The notes beneath the pieces are model-generated. The model saw only the letters and a list, made by a program, of their open reading frames with translations. It was not told where the DNA came from and ran no database searches. The position numbers and the translations under genes were made by a program. Shown here piece after piece: positions 52,659 through 64,000 of a DNA stretch of 64,000 nt. This DNA comes from Schmidtea polychroa (taxonomy: Eukaryota). Where the stretch lies: contig CM097887.1 of NCBI GenBank assembly GCA_044892525.1, positions 92,482,397 through 92,546,396 on the forward strand, given 5' to 3'. How positions within the stretch are numbered: position 1 is the stretch's first letter; the number at the start of each line of letters is the position of its first letter.

Positions 52659-52948
52659 TGTTAGAAGCTATAACATTTAATTCTTCTGTCATCAAAATAA
52701 ATTACTAAGACTATTAAATCCAAAATTATATTTCATTAAATCTGATTATATAAACAAATATTCTTGGGACATTTTCTAAATTTTAATTTCAACCAAATAT
52801 CAACATACCATCGCATTCATACTTGAATTTCAATTTTATTAAAAATTATTTTATTTTAAAATTTCAATTATCATTTCAATTTTAATATCTTAAAATAATT
52901 TAAGTTTCAATTAAAATTTTACAAATTTTAATCATGAACTAATTTAAT

Positions 52949-55900
52949 TTAGTATTTTAATTTTAACTCCTCACATCCCCCTTTTTTAAAATGTTTGATC
53001 TTCTCAACATTTCTGACTACCATCTTCCCATTTTGATCTTTAAGTAAGTAGCTCCGTTCATGTATTTTCTTTATCACTTTGTACGGCCCTTCCCACCTTG
53101 CATCGTCTTTATTTCGAATTTCTTGTTTGATCAAAACCACATCTTCTATTTCAAAATCTCTCACTGTTTTGCTTATTTTTGGTTTTAGTGTTTTATCCTC
53201 TATTCTCTTTTCCATATCTTCTCTATTTATTTCTTTATTCGAGTACCATTTCATTCTGTCGATTTTCCTCCCAAATATAATCTCTGCTGGGCTTACTCCC
53301 GTTGTTTTTTGAACTGTTGCATTTAAAGTATATTCTATTTCTGGCACTATATCAGCCCAGTTTTTCCTTCCTCCTTCATTCAATGACGCGTTAATATACT
53401 CTCTGATTGTTCTGAATTGTCTTTCAATAATACCATTCGTGTTATGGTGATATGGGCTTGAGAAAATTAATTCAATGCCAGCTGCCTTTGCTAGTTCTTT
53501 TATACTTCTTGCTTCAAAGTTCTTCCCACAATCTACATGAAGTTCTTTTGGAGCTCCAAACTTTAATATCCATTTATTTAATAACGTCTCACTAATTGTT
53601 TTTTCGTCTTGCTTGTTTATGGCCGTTAATGAGATGTATTTACTATAGTGGTCAATGATTCCGCAAATATATTTCTTTTTGTTGAACGTTTCTTTCAATG
53701 GCCCACATATATCCATATATATCTTCTCGAATGGTTCTGTACTCTTTATTGTTTGAGTTTCCTCCTTTGTCTTGGTTGTTATCGTTTTCATTTTCTGACA
53801 TCTTTCGCAGTTCTCAATTACCTTTTTTACTTCCGTTGCTAAATTTTCCATGTCGCAGTTATTCTGGATATATTTCGTTACTTTCTGTGCACCTGCATGG
53901 CACAGCAATACGTGTACTTCTTTTATCATCCTCTGTCTATTATCTGACGGTATCCATATTTTACCTTGCTTAGTTAGTACCGTGTTGTTTTCCATTATGA
54001 ACTTACAATCTTTATTTTCTAACTTATTCTTTATTTCTTGGACCTCCATATTGTCATTTTGCCACTTGTTATATCCGCCTTCTGCTGTTACTGTTAATAT
54101 TCTGGTTTTAATTTTGCCGGTTTTTGGGTCTTCGTGTTCCATCATACACTGTACACATGTTCCGCATGTTTTCCTGGATAGCATATCCGCGTTTGTATGG
54201 CTTGTTCCTTTCCTGTATTCCATTTTAATATCCAGGCTGCTTAAATAGTTGATCCATGTCTGGAATTGAGCAGTTATTGGTTTCTTCGTTGTTACCATAA
54301 ACGTAATAGCTTTATGGTCCGTTCTCAGTACGAATCTCTTACCATATAAGTAATGGTTGAAATGTTTACAAAAATAGTATATTGCCAATAATTCTTTTCT
54401 GGTAATGCAGTATCCTTTTTCATGGCTGCTCATCGCATGTGAACCATATGCAATGACATGTTCATGTCCTTTTTCATCCTTTTGCGAAAGAACTGCTCCA
54501 ATAGTATCGAAGCTCGCGTCTGTGTCTAATATAAATTCTTTTCTGAAATCTGGAAATACCAATACTGGGGCGGTTATCAATGCTTCTTTCATTTCCCCGA
54601 AAGCCTTTTCACACATCTCTGTCCATCTTATTTTCTCATTGTTTTTTCCGCATATGCTTTCTAGTGCTCTTGCCTTCTTTGCATAGTCTTTTATGAACCG
54701 TCGATAATAGTTACAGATACCCAGAAAGCTCCTCAGATTCTTTACACATTTTGGCTTTTGAAATGATTGTATTGCTTCTATCTTAGTATTATCTGTTTGT
54801 ATGCCGTCTTTATTTATTATGTGTCCCAGAAACTTCACTTCTTTTCTAAATATTTGACATTTTTCGGGGTTCAATCTTAGTCCTGCTGTTGCGATCTCCC
54901 CTAGGACTTTTTCAAATATGTTATAATGGTCTTCTTCTGTCTTTGTGAATATTAGGATGTCGTCTAAATATACCATCACTCCATCTTTCCACAAATCTTT
55001 CAATACTTTCGTCATTAATTCTTGAAATGTTCCTGGTGCCGCTGCAATACCGAACGGCATCCTGTTAAAACAGAACTGTCCTTCTTTTGTTGAGAATGCT
55101 GTTTTCTCTTGAGATTCTTTATCTAACTTCACTTGGTAATAAGCATTTTCCAAGTCGATTGAGCTAAAATATCTGGATCCGTGTAGGATGTCTAAAATTT
55201 CATCTACATTTGGCATTGGAAATGCTTGTCTTTCTGTTATCTTGTTTAATTGTCTGAAGTCTAGACAAAGCCTGATGTCTTTTTTCTCTTTCTTCCATAC
55301 ACAAACTAAAGGTGTGTTCCACGGTGAATTACACTTCCTAATTATTCCGTTGTTTTCTAGATTTTTTATTGCTTCCTCAATCTTGTCTTCCAAATTTATT
55401 GGCTGACGTCTCGGTTTAATCATTATTGGCTTTCCTTTCGTGATGATCTTATGTTTTATCAGATTGGTACACCCAATGTCCCATTTATCTGCCATAAAAA
55501 CATTCTTGTTTGCCTGAAATATTTCTAACAGTCTCTTATTTCCGGTAACCTTTAAAACGTCGATGGCATGACGTAATCTTTCTTCATCTGTTATAATCCG
55601 CCCAAATCTAGCTTCTATTTCGCAAATGAAATCACTACGTTTTTCATGTTCTTCTATTATACATTTCAATTCTATACCAAATAACCTTTGTAGTTCTACT
55701 CCTCCAATAATTTCTGGTATTAAATTCTTTACTATAATGAATGTTAAATTTCTTTCAATACTGCCCATTTTAACATTGATGCTTATTTTACCCATAGTTT
55801 CTAATCTACTGTTGTTTGCACATCTTAGCGATTCCCTTGTTTCTAATATTTCGATATTTTCTAATCGATCAATTACAGATTTAGCCATCACATTAATTCG

Positions 55901-56293
55901 CGCTCCTGTATCCGATAAACAATCTACTTTCCGCCCTTGGATATCCAGTGTTGTACTCGGTCTACCTTGCATTATATTATATGTTATTACTGGACTTTTT
56001 TGTTCTTCTACTGACAAAATATTCTGTTCTCTAGTATCTTCTACAATTTCATTAATACACACGTCTCCATTTTTCTTGAGGAATTTGTAAATTTTCTCTA
56101 TAGTTCTTTCCTCGTGTTTTACTAATTCATTTACTTTACACTCCTCTTTAAATTTTTTCTGAATTTCCTTATCATTCGACTTTTTGATTTCTACACTACT
56201 ATTATTATTAATATCACGTTCAAAAACACTGCAATCTTTATCAATCATACAATCATCATACATACTTAAATTACACATACCGTTAGCATTCAT
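52949..56293 (-). CDS. Pol polyprotein (protease-RT-RNase H-integrase), open; reached by -1 frameshift from gag
   Basis: DTG protease, YLDD RT, LDTDAS RNase H, H-H-C-C and DDE integrase, GPY motif; Ty3 domain order. Confidence 0.96.
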   Translation of the reverse strand: MNANGMCNLSMYDDCMIDKDCSVFERDINNNSSVEIKKSNDKEIQKKFKEECKVNELVKHEERTIEKIYKFLKKNGDVCINEIVEDTREQNILSVEEQKSPVITYNIMQGRPSTTLDIQGRKVDCLSDTGARINVMAKSVIDRLENIEILETRESLRCANNSRLETMGKISINVKMGSIERNLTFIIVKNLIPEIIGGVELQRLFGIELKCIIEEHEKRSDFICEIEARFGRIITDEERLRHAIDVLKVTGNKRLLEIFQANKNVFMADKWDIGCTNLIKHKIITKGKPIMIKPRRQPINLEDKIEEAIKNLENNGIIRKCNSPWNTPLVCVWKKEKKDIRLCLDFRQLNKITERQAFPMPNVDEILDILHGSRYFSSIDLENAYYQVKLDKESQEKTAFSTKEGQFCFNRMPFGIAAAPGTFQELMTKVLKDLWKDGVMVYLDDILIFTKTEEDHYNIFEKVLGEIATAGLRLNPEKCQIFRKEVKFLGHIINKDGIQTDNTKIEAIQSFQKPKCVKNLRSFLGICNYYRRFIKDYAKKARALESICGKNNEKIRWTEMCEKAFGEMKEALITAPVLVFPDFRKEFILDTDASFDTIGAVLSQKDEKGHEHVIAYGSHAMSSHEKGYCITRKELLAIYYFCKHFNHYLYGKRFVLRTDHKAITFMVTTKKPITAQFQTWINYLSSLDIKMEYRKGTSHTNADMLSRKTCGTCVQCMMEHEDPKTGKIKTRILTVTAEGGYNKWQNDNMEVQEIKNKLENKDCKFIMENNTVLTKQGKIWIPSDNRQRMIKEVHVLLCHAGAQKVTKYIQNNCDMENLATEVKKVIENCERCQKMKTITTKTKEETQTIKSTEPFEKIYMDICGPLKETFNKKKYICGIIDHYSKYISLTAINKQDEKTISETLLNKWILKFGAPKELHVDCGKNFEARSIKELAKAAGIELIFSSPYHHNTNGIIERQFRTIREYINASLNEGGRKNWADIVPEIEYTLNATVQKTTGVSPAEIIFGRKIDRMKWYSNKEINREDMEKRIEDKTLKPKISKTVRDFEIEDVVLIKQEIRNKDDARWEGPYKVIKKIHERSYLLKDQNGKMVVRNVEKIKHFKKGGCEELKLKY

Positions 56294-56316
56294 TCTTTGG
56301 TTGAAATCAATATTAC

Positions 56317-57428
56317 TTAGTAAATTGCTCCGATCAATGTCCCGTTTGACGGAGCGTGCTCGTTTGGGTCATTCTCCCTGTTATACTCGTCTGGCTGGCT
56401 TGACTGTTTTGTATTCATCATCTCATCATCAGACTCGATAGCTGCAATATCTTTTCTGTTATATTGTTGATTTCCCCATTGTCTTTGATGTACGTTCCTT
56501 GATCTTCCCTTTGTTGATAGGTATTTCTTTGAATTCTTCCTCCTGACATCTTCCTTTGGTCTCGATCTCTTCCTTGATTTCGTCTTTCCATATTTGTGTA
56601 GCACTCTCTTTCTTTGTGTCCTCGTGCATTGCATCTATGACATTTGATTGTTGGGCATTCTCTTCGTATGTGACCTTCAACACCACATGCATAACATTGA
56701 AATCTTCTTTTTATATTACATTCTCTGCTACTGTGTCCCGGTTTTTGACACGTCCAGCATTCTATCACTTTAATTCTTGTCTCTGGTTTCCATTCGTTGA
56801 TTTTTCTCTTCGTGGCTCCAACTTGTACTACATCTCTATAAGTTCTTCCCCCAGTTGTAGGTCGTATTGATCTCACCGTGTTTACTTGTTCAATAACCTT
56901 GTTAACTTTTTCTATCTTCTTTATAGTTTCTTTAATTTGTTCCGCCGTTTTGAGATCTTTCATTTCGATTTCTTTCCTGACTTCTTTATCTTTTACACAA
57001 TGTGTCAATAAAAATTTCTGAATTTCTTCCTCATTCCAAGTGTGTGAGGCCAATTTTTTAGTCATTTTTGATATTTTCTCTATAAATATTTCCGCTGATT
57101 CGTTACCTTGCTCGTAGTTCAAGGCTTCTCTTAAGTCATCAATCAATGACGTTGGTCGATGAAAAGCTGCTCTTAATTTCTGTTCAACGGTTTTACCTTC
57201 TGCGGTTTCATATTCTTCAATCAAAGTCCTGTCCAGAAGTGTAATAACTAGTACCATTTGGGTCTTCACTGGTGTCTTCGTTATTTCAAAGAACCTCTGA
57301 CATTCTTTGATAAATAATTCGAGGTCATCTCCTCTGTGGAATTTTTCTGGAAGTAATCTTCCAATAAGCAGATCCGTTGGAATGGTCGCCATGTTAGAAG
57401 CTATAACATTTAATTCTTCTGTCATCAA
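56317..57428 (-). CDS. Gag with CCHC zinc knuckles; 1-nt frameshift near 56515
   Basis: CWTCQKPGHSSREC, CYACGVEGHIRREC, CHRCNARGHKEREC; the natural C-terminus continues in frame 56317-56634. Confidence 0.9.
56327..56368 (-). other. -1 programmed ribosomal frameshift signal
   Basis: C CCA AAC heptamer (56368-62) in gag frame, 6-nt spacer, stem GCTCCGTCAA/TTGA(T)CGGAGC with 8-nt loop; the pol frame opens exactly at the heptamer. Confidence 0.8.
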
Positions 57429-57707
57429 AATAAATTACTAAGACTATTAAATCCAAAATTATATTTCATTAAATCTGATTATATAAACAAATATTCTTGG
57501 GACATTTTCTAAATTTTAATTTCAACCAAATATCAACATACCATCGCATTCATACTTGAATTTCAATTTTATTAAAAATTATTTTATTTTAAAATTTCAA
57601 TTATCATTTCAATTTTAATATCTTAAAATAATTTAAGTTTCAATTAAAATTTTACAAATTTTAATCATGAACTAATTTAATTTAGTATTTTAATTTTAAC
57701 TCCTCAC

Positions 57708-57786
<79 letters not shown>

Positions 57787-59223: not shown

Positions 59224-59816
59224 TATTAGCCACAGAGCTGCGGGTATTAATAGAATCCATAACAAAAACACGTTTATTATAAAAACACAAATATTATTAA
59301 AACAAATTATAACGTTAATTTGTTTGAGGAGTTTCTAAAAATAATAATTAATGTATAAGTAAGGATTTCAACATACAATCAAACATGCACAACATCATAC
59401 CATTATTTAAATACAAATTACAAAACGCCTCACACCCCCCCCCCTTTTTGAAAACCTTTAACCACTCAATATTTCTCGTGACGGAACTTCCATTTTCCAA
59501 TTTTATTTCATAACTTCGATCATGAATCTTTTTAGTAATCACACCTGGACCCATGTATCTGTTATCACCTTTATTTCGAACATTTACTTTGATCAATACG
59601 TAATCTCCAATTTGAAATTCGCGATTTGTCGCCTGATTGATTTTTTCTTCTTTCACAATCTCTGAGAACCATTCACTATAAATCTTTTTCCCAAACACCA
59701 TTTCAACTGGAGTCTTCCTAATTGTTTTTTGAAAAGTTGAATTCAACATAAACTGAACTTCGGGAAGAATATCTACCCATGATTTATGTCTTTTATCTTT
59801 GAGTGTTATCTATATT
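59224..59816 (-). mobile_element. 3' part of a second Ty3 family: integrase C-terminus, PPT and 211-bp 3' LTR (59224-59434)
   Basis: SWVDILPEVQFMLNST...TPVEMVFG...YMGPG...VFKKGGGCE; PPT AAAAAGGGGGGGGGG followed by TGTGAGG as in the intact element; coding sequence stops abruptly at 59816. Confidence 0.85.
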
Positions 59817-59927
59817 AGTAGATGGATTGGGCACCGCTGGCACAGGGCACCGCTAGCACAGTACCCCCCCCCCCCCCCCCCGTCGTCATATTTTTCAAAA
59901 ATATGCTAAGTCTAAAAGTACATTTTT

Positions 59928-60549
59928 TTAAACAAAGACATATGACTCATCCAGGTCATTGAAACAAAGACCATGACTCGTAGTATGACTCATCAAATTT
60001 CTCAAGGTCATTTAAACAAAGACCATGACTCATCCTATGACTCATCAAGGTCATTTTCAAGGTCGTATGACGCATAGTATGACTCATCAAGGGCAAAAAT
60101 TTTTTTCAGGGTCATTTAAACAAAGACCATGACTCATCAAGGGCATTTTCAAGGGCATATGACTCATACTATGACTCATATGACCTTGAAAATTTTTCCA
60201 AGGTCATATGACTCAGAGTATGACTCATCAAAAATTTCAAGGTCATTTAAACAAAGACCATGACTCATAATATGACTCATCAAGGTCATTTTCAAGGTCA
60301 TCTGCCTCATCCTATGACTCATCAAGGTCATTTTCAAGGTCATATGAGCTATAGTATGAGTCATATGACCTTGAAAAAATTTTCTCAAGGTCATATGTCT
60401 CATACCATGACTCATCAACAATTTTCAAGGTCATTTTCAAGGTTTTCTGAGTCATGGTATGACTCATCAAGGTCATTTTCAAGGTCGCATGACTCATCCA
60501 AGGTCATTCCCAAGGTCATCTGAGTCATCGCGATGAGTCATCAAGGTCA
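59928..60549. promoter_or_regulatory. Dense modular array of transcription-factor-type sites
   Basis: By eye about 20 TGA(C/G)TCA, about 16 CAAGGTCA and 5 AAACAAAGAC modules in shuffled order and both orientations. Confidence 0.7.
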
Positions 60550-60683
60550 TATTATTATTTTTAAAAAATATTATTATTTTTATTATTATTTTTAAAAATA
60601 TTATTATTTTATTTTTAATTTTTTCAAAGTTCCCGCCAACGAAAATTAATAATCGATAGCTCATTTTAAAGCTCAATCCAAGA

Positions 60684-60932: not shown

Positions 60933-61430
60933 TTAAACAATAAAATAATGTAAAATTAACAAAGGTAAACTAAATATTGATGTACTATTCGCAGCAATAT
61001 TGTTTGAAATTGGTAACGTAGAATTGATTTTCAGAGATTCTATTGATCCTTTGATTGTTTGAATTTCTCTTAATAATAATTCAATCTTTTTTAACAAATA
61101 ATCATGCTTCTTATCAATTATTTTCATATTCATTTTATTTTCAACAATAGAGTTATTGAAAACCTTAATATGATCAATCAATTCAAATTTTATATTTTGT
61201 ATATATTCAAATGATAGTTCATAACTGTTTTCTAAATTCTCCAATCTTTGAGATATTATTTTTCCTGGATGCTTTGACCATTTTGGTTTGTCGAGAATAT
61301 ATAAAATATCCATCAACTTGGCTGTATTCGGACAAACACATATTGATTTATTAAAAGACTCCACTGTTATTGTTGTATTGTGTGAGCACACACTCGTTAT
61401 AATAATTAGCAATATGAATATAGTTTTCAT
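60933..61430 (-). CDS. 165-aa secreted/surface protein: signal peptide, coiled coil, hydrophobic (GPI-like) tail
   Basis: MKTIFILLIIITSVCS signal; several N-x-S/T sites; heptad region; tail NIAANSTSIFSLPLLILHYFIV; AATAAA at the stop. Confidence 0.75.
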   Translation of the reverse strand: MKTIFILLIIITSVCSHNTTITVESFNKSICVCPNTAKLMDILYILDKPKWSKHPGKIISQRLENLENSYELSFEYIQNIKFELIDHIKVFNNSIVENKMNMKIIDKKHDYLLKKIELLLREIQTIKGSIESLKINSTLPISNNIAANSTSIFSLPLLILHYFIV

Positions 61431-61535
61431 GGTGTATCAAATCAAAACCTTTCTTTTACATTTATAGTCTATCAACCAATCAAAATCATCCGGTATTAGT
61501 ATAAATAAAACATCATATTTTAAATTATTGTAAAA

Positions 61536-62056
61536 ATGTCTCAATTTATGGAAAATCTTTTAAGAGAACTCGTCAACAGGAATATTATGGAAAGCCTATG
61601 TTTCCTGGTCGATCGGACCGAAAAGATTATAGAAGGTAATCACATTGATTATGAAGATGTGATCAATTCTGATTGTCTCGAAACCAAAAAATTCTATTTT
61701 AATAGAATTTTTAACTGTCTATGCGACGATCAGATGAAGTGGACCCGAATACTAGTAGGGTTCGCTTATATGAAAATAATAATCCAAAGAAGTCTATGGG
61801 ACTCAGAGCACTATTATCAGTGGTCTCAAGAAGTAATACTTTTATAATTTATATTTTATTAATATTTATTTTCTAGATAATCAAGTCAAAGTTTCAGCCA
61901 TGGATTGAAGCCAATGGCGGATGGGGAGTACTCAATCAACTCGCCAGAAATGCAAAAGAAATAGACGATCAGAAAAGAAAATTTAAAAACTATGTAAAAC
62001 TTGCAACAGGTGTTGCTATTTTGTATATTTTAACCAGATTTTTAAATAAAAATTAA
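61536..62056 (+). CDS. Bcl-2 family protein, 158 aa, two exons (61536-61832, 61877-62056)
   Basis: 44-nt GT-AG intron, phase 0; BH1-like LCDDQMKWTRILVGFAY; BH2 FQPWIEANGGWGVL; C-terminal anchor LATGVAILYILTRFLNKN*. Confidence 0.88.
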
Positions 62057-62139: not shown

Positions 62140-62549
62140 TTAATTAAGACATTCGCTGTCGTCATCTCCACATTTCATTATATTTTCAACGACATGATCA
62201 ATACAATCATTCGTAATATTATCTTTAGATTCATCTTTAGGTTCCTCTATAGGTTCCTCTATAGGTTCCTCTATAGGTTCCTCTATAGGTTCATCTATAG
62301 GTTCATAGATTTCCTCATCAATTTCTTGAGTATCGGTTTCTTGAGTTTCTTCCTCATCATCAAATCCTGTATCTTGACTCTCAACTAACCAGCCGATATT
62401 TAAGGCATTTGTAATAGATAATATGTCCTCAATTTTCACACCAGATATTTCTGCTAACTTTTCCAACAAAAAGTTGATTAAAAATTCTAAATAATAAATA
62501 ATTCGGTAATTAATTAATCATGTTAACCTTTTTCTGTAGTCATTTTCAT
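62140..62549 (-). CDS. 122-aa acidic protein with EEPI repeats, two exons (62549-62528, 62486-62140)
   Basis: The listed ORF has no ATG; a 41-nt GT-AG intron joins MKMTTEK|EFLINFLLEKL in frame; 12-bp tandem repeat ATAGAGGAACCT. Confidence 0.72.
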
Positions 62550-62675: not shown

Positions 62676-63086
62676 TTAAAATATTTGTGAAAGTCTAGCA
62701 GACATAATTTTCCAAATAGGAGAATATACATCATTATTATCAACTTTATATCCCTGGATTGCTATTGTTATATACCAATTTTCATTTTCTTTGAAACTGA
62801 TTTCATCAAAAGCATCATAAAATCTTGCATATCTATTGTTGAACCATGCATGTTGATTACACGATAGATTCGAATCTATCCGTTTAAAAACATCATCAAT
62901 AGTTTTGACATCAATCATTGAAAGCGTGCCGGATAAGAATTCGAATTTAGTTGGAATTAGCTTGACTGGTGCAACCAATTTCATATTGATTTCTTCTTTC
63001 AAAAAATACATTTTGTAGTTGTGGAACATTTGAACTGGTTGTACCATTTCTTTAGGTTTTTCGGTGCTTGAAATTTTCTTGGTCAT
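62676..63086 (-). CDS. 136-aa protein, possible OB-fold ssDNA-binding protein
   Basis: Clean ATG-TAA ORF with TATAAAA 35 nt upstream; beta-rich C-terminus WYITIAIQGYKV...YSPIWKI recalls viral SSB strands (by eye only). Confidence 0.6.
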   Translation of the reverse strand: MTKKISSTEKPKEMVQPVQMFHNYKMYFLKEEINMKLVAPVKLIPTKFEFLSGTLSMIDVKTIDDVFKRIDSNLSCNQHAWFNNRYARFYDAFDEISFKENENWYITIAIQGYKVDNNDVYSPIWKIMSARLSQIF

Positions 63087-63362: not shown

Positions 63363-63777
63363 TTATTGATATTTATCTACAATCCGGGAGTAGTGAAACC
63401 TTCTCAGAGTTTTCACTAACTCCCATTCCACATATCGCCGATATCGATCGGCACAGCAGGAACATCCGAACATACATTGATATTCCGGCTTCATTTCTTT
63501 CACTGTTCTGTTAATCTTTATATCCCATAAGAATTGATGGAATACCTCCATAATTCTTATTTGGGTTGAGTAGAAAATGAGGTCCGGAATTATTTCTGCT
63601 TCTCGATCCTTGATGATTTCAATAATTTGAGGATAATAGTATTTGAGTGTATTGATCATTACATCTAAATATTTTTCTAAAATAATAAATAGTAAATAAT
63701 GTGAAAATAAAAATTTAAAATTTACCGTAATCGTCGATATCCTTCATGAGGTTTGCAGAGCTTGGTAATTTGTACAT
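63363..63777 (-). CDS. 121-aa hypothetical protein with CxxxCxCC motif, two exons (63777-63726, 63676-63363)
   Basis: 49-nt GT-AG intron joins MYKLPSSANLMKDIDDY|EKYLDV in frame to the listed ORF; three CCAAT boxes at 63830-63870. Confidence 0.75.
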
Positions 63778-63851: not shown

Positions 63852-64000
63852 TTAGAAATCGACCAATGAAATTATCTCATTTCGAACATTGTCAACAAAT
63901 TCTCTATACTCCAAATTTCTCAACCCCAACATGACAACCTTTCCACTAGCAAACACGTTGACACATATAGGGTTATATTTTAATAGTCTTAGTGCCGGAA
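63852..64000 (-). CDS. C-terminal 49+ codons of a TATA-binding-protein (TBP)-fold protein; 5' part outside the window
   Basis: (x)PALRLLKYNPICVNVFASGKVVMLGLRN aligns to the TBP repeat [29 protein letters not shown]; not in the ORF track (too short). Confidence 0.72.
   Translation of the reverse strand, partial: PALRLLKYNPICVNVFASGKVVMLGLRNLEYREFVDNVRNEIISLVDF

Follow-up and report, generated by a model that had tools for sequence, protein, structure and literature searches.

The Bcl-2 gene and the element that carries it

The window analyzed here, a stretch of 64,000 nucleotides from the A+T-rich, 781-Mb genome of the planarian Schmidtea polychroa, contains near its right end a Bcl-2-type gene that lies 1.7 kb inside a mobile element of 19,110 bp, which extends past the window to G000:C3:92561322. 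The features of the element within the window are the following.

59817..60683 (+), left terminal inverted repeat (TIR), starting with AGTAGA and containing an internal tandem array; it matches the right end of the element in inverted orientation at 97.5% over 868 nt
60933..61430 (-), accessory ORF of 165 aa with a hydrophobic N terminus and a coiled-coil-like middle; syntenic in the subfamily loci L051-L053
61431..61535 (no strand), intergenic segment flanked by the 60933-61430 ORF and the Bcl-2 gene, likely a divergent promoter
61536..61832 (+), exon 1, 99 codons; helices 1-6, a degenerate BH3 position and BH1, placed by the PF00452 profile and a gap-free alignment with P0004
61737..61748 (+), BH1 core K-W-T-R, residues 68-71, with Thr for Gly and the Arg kept, as aligned to NWGR of Bcl-xL
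61833..61876 (+), putative phase-0 GT-AG intron of 44 nt, 16 codons 5' of the intron site of the host gene
61877..62056 (+), exon 2, 59 codons plus the stop; BH2 at 61901-61924 (WIEANGGW) and a predicted tail anchor at about 61994-62044
62140-62517 (acidic), 62676-63086 and 63363-63743 (all -), three accessory ORFs with homologs in sister copies
63852..64000 (-), 3' part of a TBP-like gene; a 96%-identical sister copy matches PF00352 at E 8.5e-15

The element is a Maverick/Polinton. Its termini read AGTAGA...TCTACT, and the flanks TATATT and TGTATT form a target-site duplication that agrees at five of six positions. Past the window it encodes an A32-type ATPase (Pox_A32, E 1.4e-6) and an adenain-type protease (Peptidase_C5, E 4.8e-6), both over the cut-off, and an rve integrase with a chromo domain, whose match (E 1.4e-5) is under the cut-off. 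An ORF of 1353 aa has the PolB motifs KxxxNxxYG and DTD together with an Endonuclease VII match, and neither of its halves gave a Pfam PolB match. Conserved ORFs of 360 aa and 340 aa in the expected block are two likely capsid genes, assigned by position only, with no Pfam support. All element families checked adjoin PolB or other core genes. The gene had been placed in a mobile element by the original prediction, and the 868-nt TIRs and the genes for the ATPase, integrase and protease bear this out. Burro, a giant Gypsy retrotransposon that also carries a Bcl-2 domain, is ruled out as the origin of the locus because the surrounding element is a Maverick.

The intergenic segment 61431..61535 contains a CCAAT-like motif at about 61476 and TATAAATA at 61500. 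Among the accessory ORFs, the one at 60933-61430 had no Pfam match over the cut-off and the one at 62676-63086 found nothing in the ESM Atlas. Those at 62140-62517 and 63363-63743 are without an early ATG and may have short upstream exons; the former includes a 12-nt tandem repeat, and its Cys/acidic end is loosely like the "oncoid" motifs of adintoviruses. TBP-like genes (PF00352) also occur in the Mavericks L136 (949-1410), L058 (2521-2991) and L048 (227-664), and a RING-finger ORF, possibly IAP-related, lies near the right TIR of the element described here (L032:3188-3736, +; zf-C3HC4_3, E 1.5e-9). The Maverick of the window is inserted into a Gypsy element, part of which remains at 59348-59809 (-) and whose pol and gag continue 14.9 kb past the window end; a separate Gypsy with direct repeats of 317 nt occupies 52659-57708.

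Exon 1 is present in at least 150 copies, since all 150 matches scored among 2394 candidates were 97-100% identical at the amino acid level, 149 of them without an internal stop. For the whole gene, 40 of the 40 scored DNA matches were near 100% identical over 521 nt, which is again a lower bound. Many copies form facing inverted pairs 7-15 kb apart (e.g. L054/L055), an arrangement that suggests palindromic rearranged elements. A distant Maverick family (L058-L063, L086-L095, L110), whose PolB is 54-58% identical, has an intronless Bcl-2 gene upstream of PolB, with 48% identity to the host gene described below; one relative has kept the BH1 glycine (HWGK).

A putative 44-nt intron and the coding sequence

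From the ATG at 61536 the unspliced ORF comprises 103 aa. The segment 61833-61876, which is 44 nt long, 91% A+T and in phase 0, starts with GTAATA and ends with TTTCTAG, and its removal would join the 99 codons of exon 1 to the 59 codons of exon 2 in a protein of 158 aa that ends at 62056. Both exons align without gaps with the S. mediterranea Bcl2-like protein P0004, exon 1 with residues 37-129 (E 3e-10, 26% identity) and exon 2 with residues 127 to 182 (E 1e-10, 29% identity). Although the donor pairs in frame with four acceptors, the one at 61876 is preferred because its junction is indel-free against P0004; the three others would delete residues.

The intron site is present in all 30 of the closest loci, one of which is the window itself (29 introns of 44 nt and one of 38 nt), and a strict scan of 115 fetched loci, including many without the gene, found it in 49. 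In these 49 loci and two more, the intron measures 30, 38, 39, 42, 44, 45, 46, 48, 51, 54, 60 or 63 nt, lengths that span all three frame classes, often through microsatellite expansion, and the exons are without such changes. Despite this free variation in length, the GT and TAG ends are fixed. Among the other element families, family C, whose protein is 31% identical, carries the intron at an unchanged codon; family B shows an acceptor there; and the Bcl-2 gene of family D is intronless and collinear with the host protein across the intron site. A search of the genome for an intronless copy of family A, the family with Thr at BH1, gave no matches.

Within family A, dN/dS was 0.05-0.18 (six of six pairs); against family C it was 0.22-0.32 in two of four pairs, the other two being saturated. 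When exon 2 was considered alone, an excess of changes at third positions was found in all six pairs. Judged from these codon comparisons, both exons are under purifying selection, with dN/dS of 0.05-0.32.

This comparative evidence makes it very probable that the gene consists of two exons and that the 44-nt intron is removed. The original prediction of a hidden spliced gene, in which a 103-aa ORF is extended to 158 aa and BH2 (WIEANGGW) is gained via exon 2, accords with the constancy of the GT-AG site and with the gap-free fit of the exons to P0004. The database entries are all unspliced predictions of 103-108 aa from short contigs, but the notion that splicing does not occur, and that the 103-aa ORF is itself translated into the product or the gene is a dead passenger, is highly improbable given the codon-level constraint on exon 2 in a different frame, the fixed ends of an intron whose length is free to change, and the collinearity of intronless family D and the host protein across the site.

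Predicted Bcl-2 fold and the BH1 motif

Exon 1 matched positions 12-67 of the Pfam profile PF00452 (E 0.008) and exon 2 matched positions 86-100 (E 0.34); the matches are weak singly, yet consecutive along the profile. A sister copy read through its intron gave E 3.9e-7 and 31.0 bits, just below the cut-off of 31.4, and the intronless gene of family D scored 32.5 bits, above the cut-off. A profile built from natural pieces found Bcl-xL at E 3e-10, with KWTR aligned with NWGR.

The protein modelled was that of the sister copy L075, which is 88% identical and has a 30-nt in-frame intron that was read through, so the model includes ten intron-derived residues and an X. From an alignment of 116 rows, which makes the result partly circular because it is rich in Bcl-2 homologs, a model with pLDDT 87 and pTM 0.74 was obtained; the first 30 rows returned for it by VIA were all Bcl-2-fold proteins, the best being Bcl-xL (Z 12.5, rmsd 2.7, 120 aligned) and the next unrelated row having Z 6.2. 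From only 10 rows of the planarian clade, the model had pLDDT 58, and Bcl-2 proteins filled the first 14 VIA rows, with a best Z of 9.2. Foldseek against viral models returned no match at E<=0.001, the first seven rows being mostly viral Bcl-2 proteins, and in the ESM Atlas, Bcl-2 clusters came up at 0.91-0.93, a weak result with low recognition. The 158-aa product would almost certainly have the Bcl-2 fold, as predicted on the sister copy. The assignment to the Bcl-2 family that had been made from the sequence therefore stood in the HMM search, where the exons match consecutive parts of PF00452, and in the structure prediction for the 88%-identical sister copy, with its Z of 12.5 to Bcl-xL. 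The tail anchor claimed at the same time would correspond to the C terminus, where 17 residues of moderate hydrophobicity (Kyte-Doolittle 1.6) precede basic residues and align with the host tail; it is best described as a predicted anchor.

The BH3 position of the window copy reads L-C-F-L-V-D and departs from the L-x-x-x-G/A-D core of the Bak/Bax type. The sister families have Asn or Glu instead of its Asp, and neither they nor the window copy have the BH3 Gly. In the alignments the Bak-like GD/AD core is not conserved in the element families, unlike in the Bak-like host protein L048.

The noncanonical BH1 is indeed KWTR at residues 68-71. Over the fetched frames, some of which come from overlapping loci, KWTR was counted 47 times, CWSK 15 times, TWSR seven times and KWSR six times; rarer in the same frames were RWSR of the host (2), SWSK (1) and HWGK (1). 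The position of the BH1 glycine is occupied by Thr in family A and by Ser in families B-D. In a set of 98 other homologs, which is biased in that it was picked by similarity to the profile, this position is Gly in 69 and Ser or Thr in 15, and 29 of the 98 depart from NWGR. The canonical NWGR is found neither in the element gene (KWTR) nor in the host paralog (RWSR), and as far as these sequences go, NWGR is not strictly defining for the multi-motif Bcl-2 family.

The loss of the BH1 glycine is likely older than the capture of the gene, because the RWSR host paralog, with which the element gene groups, shares it; the host gene likely brought the change from Gly to Ser with it, and Thr would be a further step in family A. 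Mouse Boo has Ser at the BH1 glycine and an altered BH3 selectivity (PMC8998228), and it is still classed as pro-survival (PMC8998228, PMC7022251); in Trichoplax Bcl-2L4, the loss of the BH1 glycine has been taken as a sign of a nonfunctional groove (PMC8998228). Since Boo with its Ser stays pro-survival, narrowed BH3 specificity seems likelier for the element protein than loss of function. KWTR does not hold as a mark of novelty: the host paralog is also nonglycine, Ser or Thr occurs in 15 of the 98 homologs, and Boo has Ser. A change that was likely inherited from the host lineage, and for which there are precedents, is unsurprising.

Probable capture, proposed function and meaning of the gene

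A Pfam search of the genome for Bcl-2 domains gave 909 candidates, 150 of which were scored; among these were host paralogs with NWGR, NWVK, YWAK, TWEN and SWNA, together with Burro-type domains and additional families of Mavericks. Seven near-identical NWGR copies (L036-L042) lie at G000:C4:89.9-90.8 Mb as a local duplication. The host gene at G000:C1:268544056 has RWSR, is single copy (the next match being 48% identical) and is 89% identical to the bcl2-like protein ACW83059.1 of S. mediterranea. It has an intron of 2972 nt directly after the GGW of BH2 (GGW^GT) and before the tail exon. Such a post-GGW intron is a hallmark of pro-survival Bcl-2 genes (PMC8998228), and it is absent from all element genes examined. 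The gene in the window is not the ordinary single-copy host ortholog, a possibility that is ruled out by its copy number of at least 150 and by the existence of the separate, single-copy RWSR gene. The cellular Bcl2-like protein (C9WPR4/ACW83059.1) and its host counterpart resemble the element protein in the W-S/T-R BH1, BH2 and predicted tail anchor and fall into the same clade; they differ from it in length (184 aa against 158 aa), and the host gene has its 2972-nt intron after GGW and a single copy, whereas the element gene has its 44-nt intron 16 codons upstream and a high copy number.

In a tree of 33 rows, drawn from 56 after most outgroups and the long-branch and gappy rows were dropped and with a bootstrap that was not fully settled, the Maverick genes, the RWSR host gene and two environmental proteins came together on one side with support of 99/97, and a tree of 28 rows made from exon 1 only gave the same grouping (94/93). 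Both trees are unrooted. Compared with the host Bcl-2 paralogs, as had been proposed from the sequence, the element gene thus groups with the RWSR paralog. A position of the intron-bearing families as sister to the host NWGR paralog L039 was rejected (p-AU 0.003), and a sister position of Burro was not (p-AU 0.063). Monophyly of the Maverick genes had a p-AU of 0.447, and the tree is compatible with one capture as well as with two. Environmental Bcl-2 proteins from ENA, Logan and JGI (P0010, P0013/P0152, P0015, P0026) group with the RWSR/Maverick clade, and the P0013 cluster occurs on contigs of up to 13.7 kb. P0152 had no match in viral contigs (none of 6 candidate stretches) or metagenome contigs (none of 138), and the one match of P0010 among 596 stretches was a distant cellular Bcl-2 gene (L141).

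The gene probably derives from the lineage of the host RWSR paralog by way of a spliced mRNA, with the new intron gained in the ancestor of families A-C. Capture through spliced RNA is proposed because the BH2 intron of the host is missing in all element copies examined, and such a capture followed by one intron gain is likely the simplest reading. The reverse direction, in which the RWSR host gene would have been domesticated from a Maverick, could appeal to the unrooted trees, where the host gene stands among or beside Maverick families whose monophyly is not established. It is nevertheless improbable, as the host gene keeps the ancient GGW intron that is in no element copy examined, is longer at the N terminus and has a host peptidase-like gene as its head-to-head neighbor, and tblastn of the other ORFs of the element found no match in the 20 kb around it.

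The mechanism that we propose can be put together as follows. The 19.1-kb element around the gene has TIRs and ATPase, integrase, protease and PolB-like genes. The 44-nt intron of the gene would, to judge from the comparison of copies, in all likelihood be spliced out, and the product would almost surely adopt the Bcl-2 fold. Descent from the RWSR lineage via a spliced mRNA, with an intron gained 16 codons upstream in the A-C ancestor, is a good deal more tentative but still probable. The last step is one to which we incline: the protein would be anchored in the mitochondrial or ER membrane, where its groove, narrowed in specificity, would bind the BH3 helices of Bak/Bax-like host effectors, so that the carrier cell stays alive during replication or integration of the element. 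The membrane seat and the holding of BH3 helices are drawn by analogy from viral Bcl-2 proteins (PMC7022251, PMC3847314). The BH1 Trp and Arg, BH2 and the predicted tail anchor are kept under purifying selection. A pro-survival function, argued from the family, is to that extent favored, and the chain as a whole, a captured, likely spliced, tail-anchored cargo of Bcl-2 fold acting as a viral-type pro-survival protein, appears to us somewhat better than an even proposition. Planarian bcl2 is needed for survival, and RNAi of bcl2-1 lyses the animals (PMC3566077, PMC4993586). The gene of these reports may be ACW83059.1, in which case a W-S-R groove would already be known to serve survival in planarians.

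The same spliced Bcl-2-fold protein might have a mainly nonapoptotic job, dampening autophagy, innate signalling or ER calcium release. Some herpesviral and poxviral proteins of Bcl-2 fold have such roles. The replacement of the groove glycine by Thr in family A and by Ser in families B-D would fit this possibility, as would the viral Bcl-2 folds that act in autophagy or NF-kB signalling (PMC7022251). We regard it as unlikely, since BH1 Trp/Arg, BH2 and the predicted tail anchor are maintained by purifying selection, the intron of the donor lineage lies where pro-survival genes typically have theirs, and the top structural matches are pro-survival proteins, though the differences in Z among family members are small. 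Much less credence is due to a decoy or pro-death factor, which would sequester host pro-survival proteins or permeabilize membranes late in the element cycle. The groove is possibly occluded by Thr and the Asp at the BH3 position is kept in the window copy, but in the sister families this Asp has become Asn or Glu, the BH3 Gly is absent throughout, and at least 150 frame-intact copies in the host genome would fit a killing gene poorly.

Bcl-2 cargo in Polinton-type elements is already known: Bcl2 and IAP homologs have been reported for adintoviruses (Starrett et al. 2021, PMC8502044), three Bcl2 labels appear in Supplementary Fig. S2 of that work, and there, as here, Bcl2 is accessory cargo accompanied by PolB, integrase, ATPase, protease and capsid genes. 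In contrast with that report, the intron, the traceable host donor and the at least 150 near-identical copies are features of the planarian element; the text of PMC8502044 and the searched part of its supplement name no planarian element and make no mention of splicing. PMC10748475 makes no mention of Bcl or apoptosis, and no earlier description of a Bcl-2 gene in a planarian Maverick was found in the freely accessible literature searched.

The Burro giant Gypsy LTR retrotransposons of planarians have domains of apoptosis regulators, including a BCL2-like motif (PMC6431247, where BCL2 is reported for no other element), and the IAP region of Burro1 reportedly protects stem cells, a proposed mutualism (Lee et al. 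2026, as cited in PMC13465017). Burro thus resembles the present element in being a planarian mobile element with a BCL2-like domain, which in Burro is part of a retrotransposon polyprotein and here forms a gene of its own, likely spliced, within a DNA element; in the trees, the Bcl-2 of Burro is on a long separate branch (p-AU 0.063 for its sister position). In Burro-like ORFs of about 3050 aa (L057, L066 and many others), the Bcl-2 domain, already described (PMC6431247), stands just before a viral fusion glycoprotein domain. The viral pro-survival Bcl-2 proteins (A179L of ASFV, those of iridoviruses and poxviruses, and the gammaherpesvirus proteins BHRF1 and KsBcl-2) share with the element protein a compact fold, short loops and a predicted tail anchor, and mouse Boo/Diva shares a nonglycine BH1 (Ser in Boo) (PMC8998228); these viral proteins and Boo/Diva are less than about 20% identical to it, and no close relationship is shown.

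In the left TIR there are 20 TGA[CG]TCA and 13 TCAAGGTCA sites, numbers inflated by tandem amplification; the 17-kb interior has 2 and 0. TGA[CG]TCA is AP-1-like and TCAAGGTCA is NR5A/ERR-like. Arrays upstream in family C (L102:121-785; L103:620-1042) have 14 and 12 TGA[CG]TCA sites and cannot be aligned with the TIR of the window except for an A+T-rich microsatellite; a TGA[CG]TCA core shared by unalignable arrays suggests selection. It is conceivable, though rather doubtful, that Mavericks hijacked an essential host pro-survival Bcl-2, added an intron and carried the gene, under terminal arrays of AP-1-like sites, into hundreds of loci, which would make it a wound- or stress-inducible survival factor of stem cells. 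If true, planarians would have, next to the IAP of Burro1, another mutualism between host and transposon, this time with a DNA element of virus-like type.

Only rarely can the anti-apoptotic-type cargo of such an element be followed back to one particular host paralog, and here the loss of the host intron and the gain of a new one are recorded over four element families in one genome. Intact vertebrate Mavericks have been described as intronless (PMC8097293), and a conserved, putative spliceosomal intron in a planarian Maverick warns that annotation by ORFs only misses Maverick cargo. Together with Burro, two unrelated mobile elements of planarians carry Bcl-2-type domains, and RNAi in planarians makes the role of a Polinton accessory gene testable in an animal.
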